Origin: an uncultured bacterium
GTDB lineage: Bacteria > Margulisbacteria > WOR-1 > XYC2-FULL-46-14 > WPAF01
Direction: 5' to 3'
Assembly (NCBI GenBank): GCA_903930225.1
Contig: CAIYXV010000112.1
Span: forward strand, 1-50,789
Length of the DNA: 50,789 nucleotides
The position numbers were made by a program, and so were the translations under genes. The notes under the pieces are model-generated. The model worked only from the letters and a program-made list of their open reading frames with translations, was not told the origin of the DNA and ran no database searches. Positions 40,306 through 50,789 of the stretch are shown piece by piece. Position 1 is the stretch's first letter; each line of letters begins with the position of its first letter.

Positions 40306-41007
40306 ATGAGGGCTTGTTTTGACCTGGCGCGATCCGCAGTTCTATGGCTTATCTTCTTCTTTGGCATTTTCACGATCGCTCTTTTGTATCCGATCATCCG
40401 GTATCTTTCTCCTGGTAACGAAGAGATCTTTCAGTATATGATGGGCTTCTGGGCCAGGATGTGCCTTCGCTGTTCACTGACCCGGGTCCGATTGATCGGT
40501 GCCGCGAATATTCCCGCGGCCGGCGGAATGGTCATTGCCGCCAATCATAGCAGTTTCATCGATAACCTCGTTTTGTTGGGTGAGCTTCCTCTTCGGTTTA
40601 AGATCGTGGCTTCCCGCGCTGGATTTTCATTGCCTTTTATGGGAAGGGTGTATCGCGGGGCGGGATACATACCCACCGGGCTGCGTATGGACCTGTCGGA
40701 ACAGATGAAGCTCTACCGCGAACTGAAAAATAAGCGTAATGTACTGATATACAGCAAATTACCGAAAAATAGTAAGCTCGGGGAATTTACCGAAGCCATG
40801 ATCGCGGCGGCCAGGGAAACGCATTGTCCGATCGTCCCGATCTCAATTAAGCATGCCCGCGAGGTCTTGCCGATGAAAAAATTCATATTAAAAAAAGGCG
40901 AGATCGTGGTCAGGATCGGGGAGCCGATCTATGTGCCGGACCTTAAGATTTTACAAGATAAGATCAGGGAATTGTATCAGGCGGAGGAGGGGGCGTTCCG
41001 GGCTTGA
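40306..41007 (+). CDS. Lysophospholipid acyltransferase (PlsC family), divergent
   Basis: NHSSFID (HX4D) and PIVPISI motifs present; FPEG motif degenerate. Confidence 0.8.
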   Translation: MRACFDLARSAVLWLIFFFGIFTIALLYPIIRYLSPGNEEIFQYMMGFWARMCLRCSLTRVRLIGAANIPAAGGMVIAANHSSFIDNLVLLGELPLRFKIVASRAGFSLPFMGRVYRGAGYIPTGLRMDLSEQMKLYRELKNKRNVLIYSKLPKNSKLGEFTEAMIAAARETHCPIVPISIKHAREVLPMKKFILKKGEIVVRIGEPIYVPDLKILQDKIRELYQAEEGAFRA

Positions 41008-41377
41008 CCCGGAATCCTGGGGTGGAGGGGTTTGTCATTCCAGGCTTGAACTGGAATCCAGGGGAGGGGCTTTCGATCCTTCTGGATTCCAGCGTTCGCT
41101 GGAATGACGGATGACAGTTTGAAGGAGGGGTTTGTCATTCCAGATTTAATCTGGAATCCAGGGGCGGGGTTTTCGATCCTTCTGGATCCCAGCGTTCGCT
41201 GGAATGACGGATGGCAGTTTGAAGGAGGGGTTTCAGTCATTCCAGGCTTGACCTGGTGTCCAGGGGTGGATGGGTTTGTCATTCCAGGCTTGACCTGGAA
41301 TCCAGGGGGGGGGCTTTCGATCCTTCTGGATTCCAGCTTTCGCTGGAATGACAGGCTCCAGCGTTCGCCGGGATGAC
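40993..41377. repeat. BIME-like array of GTCATTCC...GGAATCCA palindromic repeats
   Basis: Forward units at 40993, 41034, 41134, 41236 and 41278; inverted units at 41082, 41182, 41326 and about 41356; 100-bp periodicity. Confidence 0.9.
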
Positions 41378-41398: not shown

Positions 41399-41428
41399 AT
41401 GCAAGTTTTTTGTCCCGTCTTCCGATAT
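41399..41428 (+). promoter_or_regulatory. Sigma-28-like promoter copy 1
   Basis: ATGCAAG-N15-TCCGATAT. Confidence 0.7.
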
Positions 41429-41446
41429 CTTATGCGGAGGACTAAG

Positions 41447-41635
41447 GTGGCAATAGATCTTTCTTCCGTAAACGTAAATTTGGATAAGATAAACGGTGAT
41501 ATCAACAGTATTTTATCTGAAATAAAACCGATGTTCAATTCGGAGCAATGCCATGTAAATATTCCCGGAAATGTGGTAAACTCGGTTGATCTTGATAGCG
41601 CATGCAAGATTTTTGGCCTTAAGTCCGATAAATAA
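41447..41635 (+). CDS. Small hypothetical protein (62 aa)
   Basis: GGAGG Shine-Dalgarno before GTG 41447, downstream of promoter copy 1; begins MAIDLSSVNVNLDK. Confidence 0.55.
   Translation: MAIDLSSVNVNLDKINGDINSILSEIKPMFNSEQCHVNIPGNVVNSVDLDSACKIFGLKSDK
41602..41631 (+). promoter_or_regulatory. Sigma-28-like promoter copy 2
   Basis: ATGCAAG-N15-TCCGATAA. Confidence 0.72.
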
Positions 41636-41653
41636 AATGGAGACATATATATA

Positions 41654-42049
41654 ATGGTTAATTTTGAAGCGGCAAATGGATTTGGCAGAAATAGAGCGCA
41701 GTGGAAACTGCAGGGAGGCTTGGGCAATAAAGCTCAGGCTTTCAGCGAATCCACGCAAAAAGCTACACGTGCCTTAACCCAGGACCAGTTCATCCACGGC
41801 GCCCACAACACGGAGACCCGCGATTCCACTTCGGGAAAATACGAGCGTTTGGAAAAGGGATATACGAGCGTGCTCGAGGAACTGTTCACCTGGATCGCCA
41901 ACCTTTTTGGCAAGGGCACCCCCAAGACCGCTCCCCGCGATCCGGGGACGGGAGACGCGATACCTACCCCGGTTGGAAAGGCCCCCGGGGAGATAGCGCC
42001 CGGAAACCCCGGAGCGTCGGACATTGCCCCTAGAGGAGTGACAGCATGA
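41654..42049 (+). CDS. Hypothetical protein (131 aa) with an amphipathic helix and Pro/Gly-rich tail
   Basis: GGAG Shine-Dalgarno; VLEELFTWIANLFG helix; ATGA-coupled to the next gene. Confidence 0.7.
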   Translation: MVNFEAANGFGRNRAQWKLQGGLGNKAQAFSESTQKATRALTQDQFIHGAHNTETRDSTSGKYERLEKGYTSVLEELFTWIANLFGKGTPKTAPRDPGTGDAIPTPVGKAPGEIAPGNPGASDIAPRGVTA

Positions 42050-42255
42050 GCATAGATTGGTTCTCTTTTTTTATTGGAACCGGCGCGGGCGTGTTTTTAA
42101 TGTCCATTACCGGGCTGATATCCTCTTACATAAGATTAAAGAAAGCAAGGGCACGGGTTGATCTTATGGAAGCAAAAATCAAAAAGTTCCAGGATATCCT
42201 TGAAAAGAAAAAAGAAGAATTGATCGGACGGATCGAAGAGGAGAAAAAATCGTGA
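42046..42255 (+). CDS. Small membrane protein (single TM plus coiled coil)
   Basis: AGGAG Shine-Dalgarno; hydrophobic aa 5-29 followed by a K/E-rich helix; overlaps both neighbours. Confidence 0.7.
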   Translation: MSIDWFSFFIGTGAGVFLMSITGLISSYIRLKKARARVDLMEAKIKKFQDILEKKKEELIGRIEEEKKS

Positions 42256-43409
42256 TCGCATTGGCAGGCGACGTCCTTGGGCTAAACCCGGCAGGCGGAG
42301 CCCCCAAGCCGGTTGGCAAAAAGGCGATCGCACCACAACCCCCGGCGATGCCCATAGATCAAGTGACCGTGAGCGACCAAGCCCGTAAGGAGATTGCTCC
42401 GGGAGTTACCGAAACCGGTAAAATACCGGTAGCGGGGAAAAAGGAGCCGGACGGCGTCGATCGTTTATTGGGCCTTATGTCCGATCTTTTTGGCACAACC
42501 CTTTATGACAAAGGCGGCGTTGGAGGATGGATCCGTGAACAGCGAGCGAAAAATCCCGATGGGAAGATCGATTTTAGGGATATCGGTTTTAGAAGGGCTC
42601 TAGCCAGGGATCTTTATGGAGAAATGGCGACCAAATGGAGCGATAGTGAAGTAAAGGATCACATAACCGATGAGGCGGTCGACTACTTCTTTGGAAATCA
42701 GGATGGCAAGATCGATTCGAACGATCAAATGACCACCGCCCAGTTGATAAAACGGCTTGAATTCACTCTGCCCAGGTTCAAGGCGCAGATTGCCGCGGGC
42801 GGCGAGAACGCTTTCACATACCTTGGTTCATACCTTAGTTCTCACGAAATAATTATAGTCGATTACACCAGGGCGGCCGAATACTTTAAAGGCGTTGATT
42901 TTTCGGCTTTAGGTAGAGCAAACGACCGCATATTTAATAAATGCCTCGACGGCGTAATGGAAACCTACAAGTTCCTTTCTGTCAAAGGAATGATAAGCGA
43001 AGATGAATTTAAGGCCGCGGCTGAAGCATACGGCAAGTTCAAAAAAGGCGAAGGCGACGAAAAAACACTTCCTCCCCGGTTCAAGGAATTGCTCTTCGCT
43101 TCGTACTGGGGATTGTTCAAAGCGGAGTGCGGCGCCAGAGGCGTAAAACTGCCAAAGGACGCTTTACAAGATAAAATAAAAGGTCCGAAACTGGTCATGG
43201 ACCTTATGCAGGGAGCGTTCCAGAACTTTATCGAAGGCCACAGCGACGTGAATCCGGAAAATATCACCCATGACCTTCCGGACAGCCTTGACGAAACCGG
43301 CATTCAAAAAGCCAAAACCGCAAGAGATAATCAAGTCGGCGCCCGCAACGCAGCCAAAAAGACCGATGAGGTTCCTGCTCCGGATGGCAATGTTAAAGTC
43401 GTCCAATAA
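42252..43409 (+). CDS. Hypothetical helical protein (385 aa) with a disordered N-terminus and two EF-hand-like loops
   Basis: GAGGAG Shine-Dalgarno and GTGA overlap; DQVTVSDQAR; NPDGKIDFRD and NQDGKIDSND. Confidence 0.8.
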   Translation: MIALAGDVLGLNPAGGAPKPVGKKAIAPQPPAMPIDQVTVSDQARKEIAPGVTETGKIPVAGKKEPDGVDRLLGLMSDLFGTTLYDKGGVGGWIREQRAKNPDGKIDFRDIGFRRALARDLYGEMATKWSDSEVKDHITDEAVDYFFGNQDGKIDSNDQMTTAQLIKRLEFTLPRFKAQIAAGGENAFTYLGSYLSSHEIIIVDYTRAAEYFKGVDFSALGRANDRIFNKCLDGVMETYKFLSVKGMISEDEFKAAAEAYGKFKKGEGDEKTLPPRFKELLFASYWGLFKAECGARGVKLPKDALQDKIKGPKLVMDLMQGAFQNFIEGHSDVNPENITHDLPDSLDETGIQKAKTARDNQVGARNAAKKTDEVPAPDGNVKVVQ

Positions 43410-43426
43410 AAGAATACCCCTTTTTA

Positions 43427-43456
43427 ATGCAAGTCCCATGGACTATAATCCGATAA
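43427..43456 (+). promoter_or_regulatory. Sigma-28-like promoter copy 3
   Basis: ATGCAAG-N15-TCCGATAA, 9 nt before ATG 43466. Confidence 0.72.
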
Positions 43457-43465
43457 TATAGTGTA

Positions 43466-46400
43466 ATGGTCAATGGCGTAAACCCTAATCCAAATATCGA
43501 TAAACTCAATCAGAAAAATGATGTCTATCAGGGCAGCATCAATCCTTCTTTTATCCCGTCAAACGAACCCGAGCCGGGCGAGACCAAATCCACAACTGAT
43601 TCGACTTTGATCTCGTCCACCACACCCGGGGCCGTCAATTCGGCCATGTCTTCGGCTATATATAATGCCGGAGGGGTTCAGAAACCGGAAGACATAGGTT
43701 ACATCAAGAACACTCCGACGCCTCCCAGCCCGACACCTCCCAGCCCGCCTCCTCCGCCTCCCGGCGATGCCGGAGGAGTTGGCGGATCGACCCCGACGGG
43801 CGGCACGAGCGGTGATACAAGCACCGGTATGGATGTGGCGGGGGACGTCGACCAGGGAATGGACGATTTCTGGAACAGCGTCTTAAATGACCCCCTTTAT
43901 GACACGGATATTAACGGGTTTGAAAGCCTCAACGGAGATAAACTGGAAGCACTTTACCGCCAGCTTCTCTCCCTTATGAATACCAGGCTTTTTATGATGA
44001 TGTTCCTCGAGCAGAGGGGCGAGATCCGCGATATGCTGTTTAAAGCCTTCATCAGCGCCGATCTTTCGGATGTCTCCAAAAAAACCTCGCTGGTCGAGCT
44101 GACCGGCAAATCGAACGCTAAACTGGCAAAATTTTTCCAGAAGGGTATCGCCATCCTGATGACGAACATCAAAGCCCACAATGACGCGGTTTTAGCTGAA
44201 AAACTTAAAGAAGCCGATGACGCTAAAGGCAGCGGCTGGGATAACTACTGGTCCAGCAACGGCGACCAGGAAGACGCGCTCCAGATGGCGGAAGATGCCA
44301 AAAAAGAATACAAGGATGCCATGGACAGGAGCATCGCTTCGCTAAACCGCGTTTTTGGCGGGAGCTTTGTCGGACTAACTCCGGAAACTAAAGCGAAAGG
44401 TGACGAGGTCATGAACGACCTCAAGAATTCGGAGAGCCATCTTACTTACGATGCGGACGGTTATGTGGATACCGGGGCTTTCAAGCAGTACATTGTTGAC
44501 TTGAGAAATGAGTTCATAGGTCTTTTGAACGTGAACCGGCTGGTAGTTTCATCCGCCCGGCAGAAAGAATCGATGCAGAAGGCGATGTTCGAAGCGATCA
44601 CCGGAAAAAGCGGCTTGAGCGAACGCCTGGGCGGCGCGGAAGAAGGGGTTGAGTCGGAGAACGCCCACCAGGCGGTGCTTTTTGACCAGACCGCCAGCTC
44701 GATACTCGAAGTGCAAAAGGTAAAGAACGACATCAAGTTCATCCAGAAACAGATAGAGAAGATCGATGATTCGATGTGGGCCACCGTGCTGGGGAACATT
44801 TTTGAAGCGGTGGCGATCGTCGCCACCATTGTGGTTGCGGTGGCGGTATCGATCGTTACCTGGGGATCGGCTACGGCGGGGGCGGTCGCGGGGGCGGTCG
44901 CGCTGGTCGCCCTGATAGTTGCAGTTTGCGCGGGGGTGTTGGCGGCGACGTTCAAGTACGTCGGGGCAGAGATCGGCGATGCGGTGGATGACGCTTATGA
45001 CCCATCTGTTGATACTTATAACCCCAAAATGCGGGAAAAAGATCGCGTTAAACACAGTATGCTTGACCAGGCGGATGAACTTGAGTACGAAGAGCAAATG
45101 CTGGTAAACGGCGTCGGGATGGGGCAGATCGATACTTTAAGCGATGATTACCTGGCGGTTAACAATGGACAGATCGCTAACCTTACCCGCCAGCTGAATG
45201 GCCTTCAAAATGCCATGCGCGTGATCGCGAAAATGATGAAACAGCAGGCGGAGATCCGCCGGATGATCCAGCGGGCGCTGACCGGACTTTCGGGAGGGAG
45301 CGCCTCCGGAAATCTCACCAGCGCGGCGCTGGAAGATGTCTTAAAACAGATGGGAATGCAGTTCCAGGCCCTGGTATCCAACCTAAGTGAATACAAAGAC
45401 GCCCAGAACAACGAGATCCAGCAGGCCAAGGCCATGGAAGCAGCGCGGATCAACTTTGCCGTAAGCATGGTAACGGCGGTCGTGGCCGCGATCATCGGGG
45501 CGGTGATCCCGGGCGTGGGGGGGCTGATGGGAGCGCTGATCGGGTTTTCGGTCGGTATGACGCTTGGTTCGGCGATCGCAGGTATGATCACTGCCTCATT
45601 GTACGACACCAGAAACATCACTTACGCGCCGAACGTCAACGATTGGCGGCCGATCGGCAGCGAGGGGAAAGGGCGGACCGGTTCGGTGCTGGCCAATCTC
45701 GATACCGAAGCTTTTAATGTATATGATGAGCTCTTTTCGGTGGGGACCTGCGACGCGGGCGACGGCAACATCGGCCTGAACACCAACAAAATACAGGCAA
45801 TGCAGAAGCGGCTGGAGAATATCTTTATTACCATCGGCAATATCGCCTCTACCATTGAAGCCAAAAGCAAAATGCTCAAGGCGATCTGGCAGTCGCTAGG
45901 GGTTGTGACCGACGAGACCGAATCGATCAGCGACATGGTCCGGGGTAATTTTGAGACCCAGATGAAGGTTTTTCACAGCGCGGTCAGCGCGCTGTCAGAG
46001 AAGGTGGAGGTGGCCAACCGGGCCAACGCCGCTCAGCAGCAATACGACAATGCCACCACCAAATTGATCGTTACGGTAGCGCTGCTTGCCGTGTCGGCGG
46101 TAATCGGCGGGGCGACGGGATTGACCTCTGTCTTTAACCTCTGTCTTTCCGTCACCAACCTAACGGTATCGGCGATTGATATGATTAATGCATGGATGAG
46201 AGCGCGCAACGATACCGGCGAACTTGGGACCATGGCCGCGCAGACCACGCCTGAAGACGCGAAGTCGGTAAAACAAAAAATGTCCGCGGAGCAGCAGCTT
46301 CTGGAGAAGGCGGAAGAGATCGAGGCGGGGATCTCGGTCAATTCGGGCATGATCGTTCAGGGCGGCGGCGGCAACTATGGGATCAACAGCGGAATGTTCG

Positions 46401-49231
46401 AGGTCCAAAACGCGGCGCTTGAAAAAATGAACCGCATCAAAGAACTTATTGGGGACATAGTTAACCAGGGCAAAGACGTTAAAAGCCGGCTGGCGAGGGT
46501 ACTTGGCGGAGTAAGGCCGAATTCTCCAAACGCCATGGATACAGCGGCCTATATTTCAAGCACCATCGCGCGCGCCATGCTCCAGACCCAGATGCAGGCG
46601 GTGCAGCAGTTGGTAGGGCGTATGAACCAGATAAACCAGGCCGAAAAAAACGCCATCCTGCAGTCGGTAAGCACCGGCATTTCGGCGGTACAGGTTGCGC
46701 TTTCGGTGGTAAACTTCGCCAAGACCAACGGGGCAATGAAAGAATTCAAGGATATGCAGAAGGATATACAGAGCAAGCCGGAAGCGAAAGACAAATGGGA
46801 CCAGAAGGAGATCAACCGCAGGACCGAAAATTACAAGGAAGCGCTAAAGACCAGCCAGAATATCGGCTACGTGAATTTGGCTTTGTCCGTGGTCCAGACC
46901 CTTATCGATTCATTACTTATTGCTTCCGACCACTGGAGCGCCGGGCCGGACAAAAATGAAAAAGCGGTCAGCGAAAGCAAGAACAAGGAAAATGTCGCAA
47001 AAAGCCGGCAGGCGATATCTTCCGCGCAGGGAGCGTCTGTTTCATCTTACGGAGCCCAGCTCGATTCGATGGAAGCGGAGTCCACCACTCTCGCTCTTGA
47101 TTCCGGCAATGCAGACCTTGACATGCAGTTCCAGGAGATATTAAGGAACGCGGACACTCAGCTGATGAATACCTCCGAAAGCCATTTAAAGAGCCTTCTC
47201 GGCCAGGCGACCAGCCTGATGGACGGCGTGAGCAAAAAGGACTCGGCCAAGCTGGCGGTCGAATACGGCAAGCAGAGGCTGGATATTCAACAGAAAGAAG
47301 ATGACTTCAGGAAAAAAGCGGCCATGGCTGCCGCCGCCGATGTGCGCTATGCTCAGGCAAAACAGGCGCTTGAAACATACCGCCCGGAACAACAGCCCGA
47401 TCGTGCAAATCAACCGATGTCGGGCAGGCTTGAAAAGCTTTTGGCGGATGTCGAGAATGCGAGGAGAGAAGTTGATGCGGCGAAGGCAGATGTGGTAAAA
47501 AGCTATAAAGATTGGAAAGAAAGCGCGGGCAAACTGTTAACGATCGTGACCGCTCAAAATGCACGGTTGGGCAAAAAGACCGATCTGCCGCCGGAGCTTC
47601 AAGCCATGGCTGATGATCCGGTTTCCGATGAGAAAATATTTGAATCAGCCAAAAAGGTCAGCGAAGGGCAGCCGCTCGATCTTACTTTTGAGACCACGAT
47701 CGAAGGGAAAAAAGTAGACATCACCCTGACCATGGCGGCGGACGGGACCCCGAAGATCAATTATACAAACGATCAGGGAAAACAGGTTTCAATGACCCTT
47801 CCCGAATATGCAGCTATCAGGGAAACGGAGCTGAAAAACAAGGCTCAAAAAGCCGATGGTGAGGCGACCATCAGGGAGAACGAGTCAACCCTGGCGGACC
47901 GGGATGCGTCCAAAGCTGAACGAGAAGCCAAAGAAACAAAACTCCCAAGCGCGGCGGCGGACGCAAAGGAAAAACGCAGGATCGCCACAGAAAAGAAAAC
48001 TATTGCCACGGAGGCACGGGAAGCCCACAAAGCCGCCGCCGCAAAGAAATATGATCTTATGCAGGATGAGGTCATCAAGCGGATGGTCGGACAAAGTGTC
48101 GAATCTTATGATAAGACCTCCCGGGCGATGGCAAGGTTCATGGAAGATGTGACATCTATGTCCACCTCGGTTTCACAAATGTCTTCCGAAGTGTCTATTG
48201 AAGCGGACAAAGCGATGGCCGCCATGAACAAGATGGACGAGGAAGTAAAGGAAAAACGGGGGAACCGGGAGCTTAAGGAGCTGTCGGCAGAAGAGCTCCA
48301 GTCGCATTATGATACCGTTTATAAGGAAGTGTTCCTGCCGACCAGGGCGGAACTCCAGCAGATACTCAAGGATAAAAGCCAGGTCAATTCGGAGCTCCGG
48401 CAGCTTAAGGCCGAACAGAAAACGGAAGATGACCTGATCAAAGCCGGTGAATTGAAACCGGAAGATGTTAAAGAAAAGGCCCAGGTTCGCCGCAACCGGA
48501 TCGCAGAGCTCGAGGTAAAGATGGGCGATATTTCATCGAGAGAAGGAGCCTGCCGCGCCCGGATCAAATCGTTCAACCAGTACATCGGCCAGATTAATAA
48601 TGAATTCCGTGCCAAGACGGTCACGACCGATAATCCAAAAGGGAAGGACCTGAAACCGGCTGCTTCTCCTGACGCTACTACGGCCGTGACCAAGCCCAAG
48701 GCCGAAGGAAAACCGACGGCTGGACCCGAGATCGCTCCGAGCGCCGGGAAACCTGTATCTAAACCTTTATCAGACCCGGTCGTGCAGGCCGTGCTTCAAG
48801 GAAAAGTGTTTATTGAGAACGGCAAAGTGAACGTTAACGGCAGCGGGAAAATGGCAGTTGAGGATGTGGTAACCAAATTAAAGGCGGCGCTCGAAGACCC
48901 GAGGATATCAAAAGATCAGAAAGCGATAATCCAGGCCGAGATCAATCGCCTGTCTACTGAGGCGGCGGTCCCGGCCACAACCCCGGACAAGGCGGAAAAG
49001 ACCTCCACCGCTTCATCTGCGGCCACGGCAGAATCCGGTGAAGTCAAGAAAGAAGAATTGAAAAGTGGTAATATATGGAAGTCTGAGTTCGCGGAGGATC
49101 TCAGACTTGTGCTGGCTAAGGTCGACGATGCGAGCGGCAGGCTCAAAGGCTATGCCCAGACGATCGAGCATCTGACCATTCGGGTTGATAAAATTAAATC
49201 GTTCGCTCCTAAGGAATCTCTAACCGCATGA
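43466..49231 (+). CDS. Giant hypothetical protein (1921 aa) with tandem helical repeats and hydrophobic hairpins; putative multi-translocator/pore-forming protein
   Basis: Long ORF; no signal peptide; Pro-rich N-terminus; five ~200-aa repeats; hydrophobic segments at about aa 438-498, 663-712 and 867-908; coiled-coil C-terminal half. ORF is solid, product call is inference. Confidence 0.7.
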   Translation: MVNGVNPNPNIDKLNQKNDVYQGSINPSFIPSNEPEPGETKSTTDSTLISSTTPGAVNSAMSSAIYNAGGVQKPEDIGYIKNTPTPPSPTPPSPPPPPPGDAGGVGGSTPTGGTSGDTSTGMDVAGDVDQGMDDFWNSVLNDPLYDTDINGFESLNGDKLEALYRQLLSLMNTRLFMMMFLEQRGEIRDMLFKAFISADLSDVSKKTSLVELTGKSNAKLAKFFQKGIAILMTNIKAHNDAVLAEKLKEADDAKGSGWDNYWSSNGDQEDALQMAEDAKKEYKDAMDRSIASLNRVFGGSFVGLTPETKAKGDEVMNDLKNSESHLTYDADGYVDTGAFKQYIVDLRNEFIGLLNVNRLVVSSARQKESMQKAMFEAITGKSGLSERLGGAEEGVESENAHQAVLFDQTASSILEVQKVKNDIKFIQKQIEKIDDSMWATVLGNIFEAVAIVATIVVAVAVSIVTWGSATAGAVAGAVALVALIVAVCAGVLAATFKYVGAEIGDAVDDAYDPSVDTYNPKMREKDRVKHSMLDQADELEYEEQMLVNGVGMGQIDTLSDDYLAVNNGQIANLTRQLNGLQNAMRVIAKMMKQQAEIRRMIQRALTGLSGGSASGNLTSAALEDVLKQMGMQFQALVSNLSEYKDAQNNEIQQAKAMEAARINFAVSMVTAVVAAIIGAVIPGVGGLMGALIGFSVGMTLGSAIAGMITASLYDTRNITYAPNVNDWRPIGSEGKGRTGSVLANLDTEAFNVYDELFSVGTCDAGDGNIGLNTNKIQAMQKRLENIFITIGNIASTIEAKSKMLKAIWQSLGVVTDETESISDMVRGNFETQMKVFHSAVSALSEKVEVANRANAAQQQYDNATTKLIVTVALLAVSAVIGGATGLTSVFNLCLSVTNLTVSAIDMINAWMRARNDTGELGTMAAQTTPEDAKSVKQKMSAEQQLLEKAEEIEAGISVNSGMIVQGGGGNYGINSGMFEVQNAALEKMNRIKELIGDIVNQGKDVKSRLARVLGGVRPNSPNAMDTAAYISSTIARAMLQTQMQAVQQLVGRMNQINQAEKNAILQSVSTGISAVQVALSVVNFAKTNGAMKEFKDMQKDIQSKPEAKDKWDQKEINRRTENYKEALKTSQNIGYVNLALSVVQTLIDSLLIASDHWSAGPDKNEKAVSESKNKENVAKSRQAISSAQGASVSSYGAQLDSMEAESTTLALDSGNADLDMQFQEILRNADTQLMNTSESHLKSLLGQATSLMDGVSKKDSAKLAVEYGKQRLDIQQKEDDFRKKAAMAAAADVRYAQAKQALETYRPEQQPDRANQPMSGRLEKLLADVENARREVDAAKADVVKSYKDWKESAGKLLTIVTAQNARLGKKTDLPPELQAMADDPVSDEKIFESAKKVSEGQPLDLTFETTIEGKKVDITLTMAADGTPKINYTNDQGKQVSMTLPEYAAIRETELKNKAQKADGEATIRENESTLADRDASKAEREAKETKLPSAAADAKEKRRIATEKKTIATEAREAHKAAAAKKYDLMQDEVIKRMVGQSVESYDKTSRAMARFMEDVTSMSTSVSQMSSEVSIEADKAMAAMNKMDEEVKEKRGNRELKELSAEELQSHYDTVYKEVFLPTRAELQQILKDKSQVNSELRQLKAEQKTEDDLIKAGELKPEDVKEKAQVRRNRIAELEVKMGDISSREGACRARIKSFNQYIGQINNEFRAKTVTTDNPKGKDLKPAASPDATTAVTKPKAEGKPTAGPEIAPSAGKPVSKPLSDPVVQAVLQGKVFIENGKVNVNGSGKMAVEDVVTKLKAALEDPRISKDQKAIIQAEINRLSTEAAVPATTPDKAEKTSTASSAATAESGEVKKEELKSGNIWKSEFAEDLRLVLAKVDDASGRLKGYAQTIEHLTIRVDKIKSFAPKESLTA

Positions 49232-49851
49232 CGATGCGTAAAATCGAAGAAGCCAGGGCCCGGGCGGAAGCATTAAAAAAAGAGCATGACGCGCTGGTCT
49301 CCGAACTGGCCAAGAAGAAGGCCGAGATCGACGGAATTGCCGCCGGCCATGATAAATACAAGGATAACCCCGCGATGCTTTCCCAGCTTGAAGAGGTCAT
49401 GAAAAAGAGGATGGAAGAGCTTTCCGCCCTGATCAGGAATATTGATGAGCTTGGCGATAAGATCAAAGCCGTGAACGAAGAGCTGAACCGCTTGTTTGAC
49501 GAGATAAAAACTCAGATAAAGCGTGTGCCTGCTAAGGAGTCCCCGATTGTAAAGATCGCTAAAACCCCATTGGCCGAAAAAATGCTGAATCAGGCGATGG
49601 CGGTAAAGCCCCTGGTAAAGCAAGACATCCCAGTTGCCAAACCCGCTGCCGCTAAACCAACCCCGGCTGTAATTGAGAATAAAAAGGAAGCCCCGGCGCC
49701 TGTAAAGGAAGCGGAAAAAAAGATCAAAACTGAGGTCAAAAAGACAGCTCCTTCAGGGGACCTTTATGATAAAGCCGCCCGCGAAGCCAAAGCGCAGGAA
49801 GAATACTTGAAGAAAATGTCCGGTTCCCACAAGGATTACGGCGCAGCTTAA
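49228..49851 (+). CDS. Coiled-coil hypothetical protein (207 aa)
   Basis: ATGA-coupled to the giant gene; heptads over aa 1-98; K/P/A-rich tail. Confidence 0.75.
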   Translation: MTMRKIEEARARAEALKKEHDALVSELAKKKAEIDGIAAGHDKYKDNPAMLSQLEEVMKKRMEELSALIRNIDELGDKIKAVNEELNRLFDEIKTQIKRVPAKESPIVKIAKTPLAEKMLNQAMAVKPLVKQDIPVAKPAAAKPTPAVIENKKEAPAPVKEAEKKIKTEVKKTAPSGDLYDKAAREAKAQEEYLKKMSGSHKDYGAA

Positions 49852-49875
49852 TCCCGCCCCCTGGCCTTAAAATCC

Positions 49876-49905
49876 ATGCAAGTTTTTACGCTCCCCCCCC
49901 GATTA
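49876..49905 (+). promoter_or_regulatory. Sigma-28-like promoter copy 4
   Basis: ATGCAAG-N15-CCCGATTA. Confidence 0.65.
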
Positions 49906-49920
49906 TATATGTGAACGCAT

Positions 49921-50142
49921 ATGCAGATATCAAATTCAATAAATAACAATATGAGCTCGGTGAGGGAGAACGTATTGGATGCCCTTAAGAGCGGGAATGT
50001 GTCAGACGGCCTTAAAGCGACCGATCTTTTTTTAAATTCTAATAGTGGTACTTGCGTTTCCATTTCCAAGACTGATGATGTTGCCACTTTGGCTCATCAG
50101 CTCCTGGGAGGAAAAATGACCCAGGTTAACACGGTAGTCTGA
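49921..50142 (+). CDS. Small hypothetical protein (73 aa)
   Basis: Directly after promoter copy 4; N/S-rich N-terminus. Confidence 0.55.
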   Translation: MQISNSINNNMSSVRENVLDALKSGNVSDGLKATDLFLNSNSGTCVSISKTDDVATLAHQLLGGKMTQVNTVV

Positions 50143-50155
50143 AAGGAGAAATGAA

Positions 50156-50371
50156 ATGACAGAAACTACAGGCGCCGCCGGACAGATAAAACCAGGTTTT
50201 CAGTCTGAAACCGGACGAGCGATGATCAACGAGCTCAAGACCATCCTTGGCGGAGATAAGGGCGTCAATACCAATACCGATCTTAATGCCAAGTCGGAAG
50301 AGATCGTTAAGGCCAATACTTCGATCGCCGGCGGAAATTCGGCCTTGGGACAAAGAGGAGTAGTAGTCTAA
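50156..50371 (+). CDS. Small hypothetical protein (71 aa)
   Basis: AAGGAG Shine-Dalgarno; TAATG overlap with the next gene. Confidence 0.65.
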   Translation: MTETTGAAGQIKPGFQSETGRAMINELKTILGGDKGVNTNTDLNAKSEEIVKANTSIAGGNSALGQRGVVV

Positions 50372-50652
50372 TGGAAATTCAGGGTATTTCAGGTAAACCC
50401 GCAATTGCGGCAAAACCGGAAACAAACAACCAGGCGACGCGCGCCGATGGGGCCAGCTTTTTGGGCTCGATCACGGAAGCGGTAAAAGCGGGAAAGATCG
50501 TTATGCCAGGCGGGACCAATATGGAACAGCTCGATTTTAAGAAGACAAAAGTTAACGGGGAAACGGGTATCAAGGCCGAAGAAACGGAAGAAGAAAAGAT
50601 CAAAGGGTTTCTGACCAGGATAAAAAATATTCTGGATAAATCAAAAAAATAA
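50371..50652 (+). CDS. Small hypothetical protein (93 aa)
   Basis: GAGGAG Shine-Dalgarno; translationally coupled; contains ASFLGSITEAVK. Confidence 0.7.
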   Translation: MEIQGISGKPAIAAKPETNNQATRADGASFLGSITEAVKAGKIVMPGGTNMEQLDFKKTKVNGETGIKAEETEEEKIKGFLTRIKNILDKSKK

Positions 50653-50667
50653 AGGAGGTGATACGAG

Positions 50668-50789
50668 ATGATAAATATGGAAGTAGCACTTGACTGCGCG
50701 AAGATGATCGACGACCGTTTGAACCTGCTTGAGCATGTGAACACCTTGACGGCTGATGGAGATGGTTCGACCGATATCAGCACGTCGGA
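50668..50789 (+). CDS. Hypothetical protein, 3'-truncated by the window edge
   Basis: Strong AAGGAGGTGA Shine-Dalgarno; open frame MINMEVALDCAKMIDDRLNLLEHVNTLTADGDGSTDISTS to the end. Confidence 0.6.
   Translation, partial: MINMEVALDCAKMIDDRLNLLEHVNTLTADGDGSTDISTS

Follow-up and report, generated by a model that had tools for sequence, protein, structure and literature searches.

The stretch of DNA analysed here (the window, 50,789 nucleotides (nt)) is the entire contig C112 of G000, a metagenome-assembled genome (MAG) of the class Saganbacteria (1.69 Mb, 137 contigs, 99.2% complete). Saganbacteria are a sibling group of Cyanobacteria, and the initial annotation of this DNA, made from the letters alone, was right to speak of a Cyanobacteria-related lineage. 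From 41.4 to 50.8 kb the window carries a cluster of 10 open reading frames (ORFs), all on the + strand, consistent with the at least 10 co-oriented genes first reported, together with four copies of a promoter-like motif (P1 to P4). The cluster is the first half of a lineage-specific locus of ~20 kb situated between the genes for PBP1A and PEPCK. Its features, in order and with their counterparts in relatives (other genomes, designated G001 onwards), are as follows.

41400-41430, + strand: motif P1, ATGCAAGTTTT-N11-CCGATAT; an orthologous copy lies 5' of the equivalent small gene in G001, and a copy lies 5' of the first locus gene in G003.
41447-41635, + strand: 62-amino acid (aa) ORF with a GTG start, no family and no Pfam match; a homologous 64-aa ORF has the equivalent position in G001.
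41603-41633, + strand: motif P2, within the 3' end of the 62-aa ORF; copies lie 48-49 nt 5' of the 131-aa homologues in G001 and G003.
41654-42049, + strand: 131-aa orphan with a polar N-terminus; homologues in G001 and G003.
42046-42255, + strand: 69-aa protein, an N-terminal transmembrane helix plus a charged helix; its family is found in 11/12 loci.
42252-43409, + strand: 385-aa helical protein with proline-rich ends and two EF-hand-like DGKID loops (alignment A5).
43428-43458, + strand: motif P3, 38 nt 5' of the giant gene; a copy precedes the giant gene in 9/11 relatives' loci.
43466-49231, + strand: giant 1921-aa protein with a polar N-terminus, four hydrophobic-segment modules and a coiled-coil C-terminal third.
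49228-49851, + strand: 207-aa coiled-coil protein, overlapping the end of the giant gene by 4 nt; Pfam gives coiled-coil families only.
49877-49907, + strand: motif P4, with the -10 part CCGATTAT; copies lie 5' of 70-75-aa genes in G010, G005, G008 and G014.
49921-50142, + strand: 73-aa orphan (ORF, Pfam, locus comparison).
50156-50371, + strand: 71-aa orphan (ORF, Pfam, locus comparison).
50371-50652, + strand: 93-aa orphan, family H, kept in 11/12 loci (alignment A2), with no PDB or Pfam relative.
50669-50789, + strand: first 40 codons of a gene for a ~120-aa protein of family I (alignment A3), which the contig end truncates.

The giant hairpin protein, its coiled-coil partner and several small proteins, as originally described, thus correspond to products of 1921 aa, 207 aa and, for five of them, 62-131 aa. 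The start of the first gene had to be moved: the position proposed for it, 41399, falls within motif P1, and the 62-aa ORF begins at the GTG at 41447. Overlaps of 1-4 nt were found at four junctions (42046, 42252, 49228 and 50371); these fit the translational coupling that had been claimed for most of the genes. The absence of Sec signals was assessed by hydrophobicity and by eye, and in these terms it holds with one qualification, the 69-aa protein being the only cluster product with a hydrophobic N-terminus. The helix-loop-helix shape of the small proteins was likewise judged by eye, on alignments.

The relatives show the locus as a contiguous, class-conserved unit. Twelve loci, including that of G000, were compared, and the gene order is the following.

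Positions 1 to 5: PBP1A (flank); a small protein; a 65-83-aa membrane anchor; a 307-466-aa protein; the giant, of 1373-2620 aa.
Positions 6 to 9: the coiled coil; three or four 60-140-aa proteins; a ~100-aa protein; a 455-770-aa protein.
Positions 10 to 13: a ~180-aa protein; a ~130-aa protein; a GT2-TPR glycosyltransferase; a ~530-aa protein.
Positions 14 to 16: variable genes; a DUF3880-type glycosyltransferase; PEPCK (flank).

The 207-aa family lies 3' of the giant gene in 6/12 loci and is also present in the locus of G007. By domain scan, the two glycosyltransferases are GT2+TPR and DUF3880+Glyco_trans_1_2 proteins, which we read as cytoplasmic. The final 122 nt of the window are 94% identical to positions 9560-9439 of contig C127, where the 120-aa gene is complete; a repeat therefore broke the assembly at this point. 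The remainder of the locus of G000 lies on C57 and C127, and we infer the contig orders C112 to C57 to C127, and C8 to C93, on the basis of partial matches and of synteny in G003 and G010. Followed past 50.8 kb and through the MAGs in this way, what had been described as a cluster turned out to be half of the ~20-kb locus. Its position between PBP1A and PEPCK is constant across orders and differs in G050, a distant, flagellated relative, and its inheritance appears to be vertical and class-wide.

On C112, the cluster is preceded by genes for a phosphoglucomutase, a class A PBP and an acyltransferase, and then by a ~360-bp array of REP-like (repetitive extragenic palindrome-like) sequences. The array consists of three tandem ~100-bp units (40996-41355), mutually 88-92% identical, directly 5' of the cluster; copies are also found on C127 (again just 5' of a locus gene), C82, C73, C19, C91 and C76. 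The G+C content of the cluster is similar to that of the remainder of the contig. The C112 stretch is present in three DNA runs, all from one freshwater-sediment study, and the run search listed no RNA run containing it. In the sister species G001 (C1:1-14770), the cassette of small protein, anchor, ~370-aa protein, giant and coiled coil is tandemly duplicated, and the two ~370-aa paralogues are 64% and 40% identical to the 385-aa protein. In G003 only (C22, L034:5433-6256), ORFs of 131 and 143 aa are inserted between the last locus gene and PEPCK; by its appearance this pair looks like a nucleotidyltransferase/HEPN-type toxin-antitoxin.

Family searches bore out the statement that the genes cannot be assigned to families. 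No window ORF had a Pfam match reaching the family cut-off (listing at E ≤ 1), PHROG and NCBIfam returned coiled-coil noise only, and no phage structural or other known family was matched in these three collections. The window ORFs were also without match to the SctE, SctB, SctA and SctF families (Pfam at E ≤ 1; NCBIfam at E ≤ 0.01), and membership of the translocon or needle families, to which the cluster had been likened, thus found no backing in Pfam or NCBIfam. Searches of PDB sequences with profiles of families H, I, J, K and of the 385-aa family gave nothing meaningful, and a protein atlas look-up returned no entry for the giant or the 385-aa protein. When 143 locus proteins from the 12 genomes were scanned with Pfam at E ≤ 0.05, flagellar, type III secretion system (T3SS) and phage families were absent among the 25 most frequent families, a count outside which stand 84 further families, mostly single matches. 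LapA_dom matched 5 of the 143 weakly, and these five presumably belong to the membrane-anchor (69-aa) family. The counterpart of the 69-aa protein in G050 has a weak DivIC match.

For the 385-aa protein, a single-sequence query found homologues in 6/41 relatives and a search for homologous proteins returned 3 proteins only; its matches to EF-hand_7 (Pfam, E 0.17) and to a calcium-sensor chain (PDB sequences, E 0.055) are both below significance. The 93-aa family H was considered as a possible FlgM, and this was dropped when hhalign against a G050 ORF read as FlgM gave a probability of 0.2%. Most locus proteins are small, with a polar N-terminus and no membrane segment. The S/T/N/P-rich N-termini that had been described were recovered as an excess of S/T/N/Q/P/G in the first 30 residues, 38% in 14 non-glycosyltransferase locus proteins versus 29% in a background of 1357 ORFs (permutation p ~0.0004), a rough figure because the background starts are longest-ORF calls.

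The giant has hydrophobic segments at residues 437-501, 659-709, 862-890 and 1136-1154, which recur about every 200 residues, each after conserved helical stretches (alignment A6), and form 3-4 hydrophobic hairpins. The polar N-terminus contains a conserved (Y/F)IPSN motif, and the coiled-coil C-terminal third is charged. At least 2 hydrophobic segments were seen in 10/10 full-length homologues examined. The modules form an internal repeat that is visible through profile matches and by eye only: the profile finds another stretch of the giant itself at E 2.9e-11, and a BLAST self-comparison showed no internal repeat. Among 1.84 billion representatives the family comprises 126 clusters; nearly all members have 1200-5700 aa and match the profile in 2-5 stretches, and where they are named they are hypothetical proteins of Margulisbacteria. 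When a profile of the first two modules was run against 177,635 PDB sequences, the top match was AopB, the major translocator of the Aeromonas T3SS (E 0.04, 16.2 bits, bias 5.1). The alignment runs from the helix preceding the first hydrophobic segment into that segment. We take this match as a lead, below significance.

We considered the possibility that the cluster is a domesticated or resident mobile element, for instance a module of the phage-tail or tape-measure kind. A very large helical protein whose hydrophobic segments are rich in Gly and Ala is, in general terms, tape-measure-like, the 207-aa partner matches PHROG tape-measure families weakly (E 0.005-0.006), and REP-like repeats flank the cluster. 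Yet PHROG gave no match for the giant and 7/9 other tested proteins, the remaining two reaching only E 0.004-0.006, and the cluster does not differ in G+C content from its contig. The same PBP1A-PEPCK position is kept across orders (G050 excepted), the giant family is found in 34/38 genomes of the class with apparently vertical inheritance, and the ORF lists, in which not all neighbouring ORFs were scanned, showed no evident gene for an integrase, terminase, capsid or baseplate. A mobile origin is accordingly very improbable.

The four identically spaced promoter-like motifs of the initial annotation were readily recovered by pattern search as TGCAAG-N16-NCGAT at 41400, 41603, 43428 and 49877; the extended form is ATGCAAGTTTT-N11-(C/A)CGATAWAT. 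Genome-wide, 14 matches were observed versus 3.2 expected from base composition. Outside the search pattern the flanks are also alike, with A before TGCAAG in 14/14 copies and TTTT after it in 11-12 of 14. Orthologously placed copies occur in all 11 relatives' loci that were scanned. As judged by reading of the flanks, 13/14 copies lie closely 5' of genes, all of them orphans or locus genes; the genes 3' of the 14 copies are orphans, two glycosyltransferases and one kinase. Beyond the window, three copies are on C127 and others lie 5' of small orphans on C3, C74, C94, C98 and C118. On C113 a copy stands 5' of the gene for a 1319-aa protein (G000:C113:8607-12566, - strand) that may be cargo of this regulon as well. 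It has a proline-rich N-terminus, a Hanks-type Ser/Thr kinase domain at residues 174-417 (Pkinase, E 6e-38) and a Gly/Ala-rich, hydrophobic C-terminal part.

The two halves of the motif resemble the E. coli sigma-28 consensus TAAAGTTT-n11-GCCGATAA (PMC2859248). The -35 part GCAAGTTT fits 6/8 positions and (C/A)CGATA fits the -10 core, with one extra base in the spacer. Control by an alternative sigma factor of the sigma-28 type, as first proposed, is therefore a plausible reading of this resemblance.

The genome does encode an export apparatus and a sigma factor of the group that such a reading calls for. The genes found are distributed over three contigs.

C93: FliO, FliP, FliQ, FliR, FlhB and FlhA.
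C43: FliK-like, FlhB-C-like, FlgF, FlgG, FlgA, FlgH, FlgI, sigma factor, FlgB, FlgC, FliE, FliF, FliG, FliH, FliI and FliJ.
C8: a 264-aa FlgE/F/G-like protein (short, hook-like) and FliN.

With the export gate FliPQR/FlhAB, FliHIJ, the MS ring, rods and L/P rings, this is the basal body of a flagellar T3SS, and the presence of an export apparatus in the genome, on which the initial annotation depended, was thereby established. An injectisome of the Sct kind was not what we found, the apparatus being of the flagellar type (FlgB/C/F/G, FlgH/I, FliE/F). A check for secretins gave two genes of the family (G000:C103:24329-24805 and G000:C9:1544-2011), on contigs other than those of the T3SS genes found. 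The sigma factor on C43 has 249 aa, and its best family is FliA/WhiG, matched over the full model length at 141 bits, below the NCBIfam cut-off of 189.6; the next, SigB/F/G, scores 77. Its gene lies between flgI and flgB, inside the basal-body operon.

Parts needed for a rotating filament were not detected. In G000, hidden Markov model (HMM) searches found neither Flagellin_N, the flagellin check thus coming out negative, nor MotA_ExbB, FliG_C, FlgM or FliS; the best Pfam FlgM match (E 0.54) lies within an unrelated 415-aa frame. FliG of G000, at 176 aa, has the N and M domains only. Across the class, a sample of 41 genomes had matches to FlhA in 39 genomes, to MotA_ExbB in 5, to FliG_C in 3 and to Flagellin_N in a single one; the absences stand for HMM negatives in MAGs, 29 of which are of high quality. 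Because the apparatus is kept in 39/41 genomes and flagellin in only 1/41, it must need some cargo. Flagellin_N matched just one ORF in the class, an odd 251-aa frame whose N-terminus is hydrophobic (G028:C4:60770-64132, ORF 1408-2163), and its neighbours, ORFs of 395 and 262 aa, are non-flagellar by reading. FliG_C occurs in a ~495-504-aa frame beside a 260-aa MotA-like gene in G021 (C24:4206-5190), G033 (C20:16535-17519) and G024 (C24:13194-14193). All three genomes are without matches to the 664-aa locus family, and two are without matches to the giant family; it may be that system B (defined below) keeps a motor where the locus is missing, and three related genomes are too few to say so.

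Examination of 101 genomes of the phylum Margulisiibacteriota indicated that two such systems exist. FlhA is present in 96 of them and Flagellin_N in 14. Each of the 13 flagellin-bearing genomes outside the class has two FlhA copies, one of which is split over contigs in two cases, and the remaining phylum genomes have one, barring split or fragmentary matches. In an FlhA tree with 21 members (the two copies of 6 among the 13 genomes and 9 single-copy sequences; midpoint-rooted, no outgroup), copy A formed its own clade (SH-aLRT 100), and copy B grouped with the single-copy FlhAs, including that of G000 (100). In G050, the copy-B contig carries a short FlgE-like protein, FliO, FliP, FliQ, FliR, FlhB and FlhA, the last 66% identical to FlhA of G000, and the copy-A contig carries FlgC, FliF, FliH, FliI, FlgE/G-like, FliPQR, FlhBA (44%) and a FliA-like sigma. 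The labels FlgK, FlgM, FlgN, FliW and CsrA in this genome are our reading of translations only; FlgF/G/H/I were tested by tblastn, and Flagellin_N matches a 414-aa ORF.

The sigma factors follow the same division. In 5/5 flagellin-bearing relatives the best match to the sigma of G000 is surrounded by FlgI-sigma-(FlgB)-FlgC, FlgB not being detected by tblastn in 2 of the 5, and these 5 genomes each have a further FliA-like sigma gene, at 2.4-2.7 kb from copy-A flhA. As the gene stands between flgI and flgB in G000 and in these five relatives, it is tied to the basal body. The sigma of G000 is 28-35% identical to either sigma of the flagellated relatives. Together, the FlhA copies, the tree and the sigma arrangement identify the apparatus of Saganbacteria as an ancient flagellar paralogue that has a sigma factor to itself; we refer to them as system B and sigma-B. 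System B is the only T3SS in G000.

The two paralogues may also use different promoters. In eight flagellated relatives, 7/15 flagellin upstream regions match TAAAG-N15-(C)CGAWAAT (two of the seven look like chance), and no match was found in the other 8/15. Compared with the cluster motif, this pattern has a spacer one base shorter and a different -35 part; two related yet distinct promoter types would suit two paralogous sigma factors. Six of the 15 regions instead carry a common block, GGTCCGC.TGTCGGGG, which is not a sigma-28-type motif and points to another way of controlling flagellin there.

The locus coexists with both systems in G050, where it encodes a 4319-aa giant, a 103-aa J-like protein, an 860-aa protein and a 371-aa ORF that can be aligned by eye, at its N-terminus, to the GT2-TPR family, and where it has at least 1 motif copy of the same type; Pfam found no family for 10 ORFs of this distant locus. 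This arrangement bears on whether the locus could be a set of extremely diverged hook-associated, filament, cap and chaperone proteins of a real, motile flagellum. The locus glycosyltransferases are of the kinds present in flagellin glycosylation islands. Sigma-28-like control, as for late flagellar genes, would also agree with this idea, as would the N-terminus of the ~530-550-aa family, M-x-I-N-x-V-x-x-N-x-x-x-Q-Q, which is faintly flagellin-like by eye. However, G050 has the locus beside a second, canonical flagellar set and true flagellins, and the locus is therefore not a diverged filament set; occurring alongside ordinary flagella in related classes, it would be an accessory module of the second system and not a replacement for the filament. 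Moreover, 36/41 class genomes are without a MotA/ExbB-family gene and 38/41 without FliG_C, FliG of G000 has the N and M domains only, and no flagellar family is among the most frequent Pfam matches of the locus proteins. We also know of no filament protein with transmembrane hairpins. A motile flagellum of this kind seems improbable.

What was observed are the genes and the apparatus, the conservation of both genes and promoter motif, and the paralogy of the apparatus to the true flagellum; from there we infer a sigma-B reading of the motif, export, and roles outside the cell. We propose, with about an even chance of being right, that sigma-B drives the cluster as the late or exported module of system B, a T3SS derived from a flagellum that probably does not rotate. 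Sigma-B would activate the locus after completion of the basal body and the hook-like tube, and the locus products, with their polar N-termini and no Sec signal by eye, would leave through system B, some of them perhaps after glycosylation in the cytoplasm by the locus's two glycosyltransferases; for flagellins, glycosylation in the cytoplasm ahead of export is typical. The small helix-loop-helix proteins would form or cap a distal structure, and the four helical-bundle and hydrophobic-hairpin modules of the giant would insert into a membrane in the manner of T3SS translocators.

Several observations weigh against this proposal. Sigma-B falls short of the family cut-off, and the motif has a spacer one base longer than the E. 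coli consensus and than the flagellin promoters of the relatives. Flagellin, FlgM, FlgK/L and FliD/S, the late flagellar genes, are absent from the motif regulon; since no known late flagellar gene belongs to it, the motif is linked with sigma-B through resemblance and gene position. The giant family was found in 55/101 phylum genomes (34/38 of those in the class) versus 96/101 for FlhA, and its profile loses reach with distance because it was built from Saganbacteria. The match to AopB is not significant and is partly composition-driven (5.1 of the 16.2 bits), and the Pfam scan at E ≤ 1 gave no SctE/SseC-type family for the giant. Multi-hairpin proteins could equally well be resident in the inner membrane. 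In both single-contig genomes the locus is distant from the system-B genes, at ~170-190 kb with flhA at 267 kb in G013 and at ~186-200 kb with flhA at 289 kb in G018. Export, translocon function and contact-dependent injection should accordingly be taken as conjectural.

The main rival is a non-secretory regulon of the sigma-28/WhiG type with a developmental or envelope function, in which the giant and its partners form a resident membrane and coiled-coil scaffold. WhiG drives a developmental programme in Streptomyces. More broadly, non-flagellar programmes are known to be controlled by sigma factors of the FliA/WhiG family (PMC12871210). The separation of locus and T3SS genes in the complete genomes G013 and G018 would suit such a regulon, and so would a giant with several hydrophobic hairpins and long coiled coils, and the weak LapA_dom (69-aa) and DivIC (G050 counterpart) matches, which are typical of inner-membrane anchors. 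Yet flgI and flgB flank the sigma gene in G000 as in 5/5 relatives checked, the export apparatus is intact in nearly the whole class despite the near absence of flagellin, and the locus proteins are mostly small, polar at the N-terminus and without membrane segment. We regard a non-secretory regulon as possible, though doubtful.

In a bolder form of the export proposal, system B would have evolved independently from a flagellum into an injection or secretion machine, spread phylum-wide and provided with its own sigma-28 paralogue and with L/P rings instead of a secretin, of which the window encodes the distal end. The small helical subunits would then be a tip or needle-like extension and the giant a four-hairpin pore-former entering the target membrane, and cargo, e.g. 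the 1319-aa Hanks-type kinase, would follow. We consider this rather unlikely. If it were true, a flagellum would have been turned into a device for contact-dependent delivery for a second time, and separately, in small-genome relatives of Cyanobacteria.

In textbooks, the re-use of a flagellum for secretion is exemplified by the injectisome. Should the export module proposed here be real, it would offer a further, independent flagellum-to-secretion conversion for comparison, in the form of an ancient, phylum-wide paralogue with its own sigma factor, ~20 conserved candidate cargo or distal genes, and no filament or motor genes found. It would also help to explain why the small-genome Saganbacteria keep ~25 basal-body genes. 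The locus adds ~15 new protein families for which a testable common function is indicated, and it hints at a host- or partner-associated lifestyle in this uncultured sister group of Cyanobacteria. Full-text searches on flagella or type III secretion in Saganbacteria, Margulisbacteria or Margulisiibacteriota gave no paper on the present subject, as far as titles and the starts of abstracts show. The main text of the founding genome paper (PMC6349859; supplements outside the search) is without flagella or secretion ('flagell', 0 occurrences), and the searched text of the Trichoplax symbiont paper (PMC6784892) likewise has 0 occurrences of 'flagell'.

Among known systems, dual (primary and secondary) flagellar systems are comparable in gene content, some of our genomes carrying two complete, paralogous export-gate and basal-body sets, each with a FliA-like sigma. 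To our knowledge, both sets of the known dual systems build flagella with flagellins and stators. In contrast, the genomes with system B only have flagellin in 1/41 and a MotA-family gene in 5/41. Export of non-flagellar proteins by a flagellar T3SS with which they are co-expressed is known for Fed and Cia of Campylobacter. Basal bodies kept without filament have been described in Buchnera aphidicola (PMC8109811) and a flagellar T3SS-like system in the non-flagellated Lysobacter enzymogenes (PMC7688988). System B is like these, as there described, in retaining gate and basal body with no flagellin found and in suggesting export over motility. Unlike these remnants of a single system, it is an old paralogue that stands beside a true flagellum in sister classes, and it comes with a sigma factor of its own and an extensive, conserved locus of candidate cargo.

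The regulon is similar to the late regulon of FliA in that a group-3 sigma is encoded with basal-body genes and the candidate cargo is small and without Sec signals. The promoter-like motif is likewise bipartite, its -35 element containing AAGTTT and its -10 element CCGATA. It differs in the additional spacer base, in a -35 element that starts with GC and not TA, and in containing no recognised flagellar gene; furthermore, the sigma factor is a paralogue, and Saganbacteria are without detected filament genes. 

Several features set the locus and system B apart from the injectisome and its translocon. No product belongs to a Sct family by sequence, flagellar rods and L/P rings are retained, and the apparatus is not clustered with a secretin, the two secretin genes of G000 lying elsewhere. 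The giant, with four hairpin modules, is 3-5 times the size of SctE. A sigma-28 paralogue would be in control, and the only TPR domain is fused to GT2, no class II TPR chaperone having been identified. The cluster is nevertheless like injectisome translocon operons in its operonic, probably translationally coupled genes and in the lack of Sec signals by eye. It is like SctE-type translocators in having a large hairpin protein with coiled coils before the hairpins and small helical companions, and the top PDB sequence match of the giant, though not significant, falls in the SctE family. According to Abby and Rocha (2012; PMC3459982), the injectisome derives from the flagellum with loss of its motility parts; system B, too, looks like a flagellum minus the parts that serve motility.

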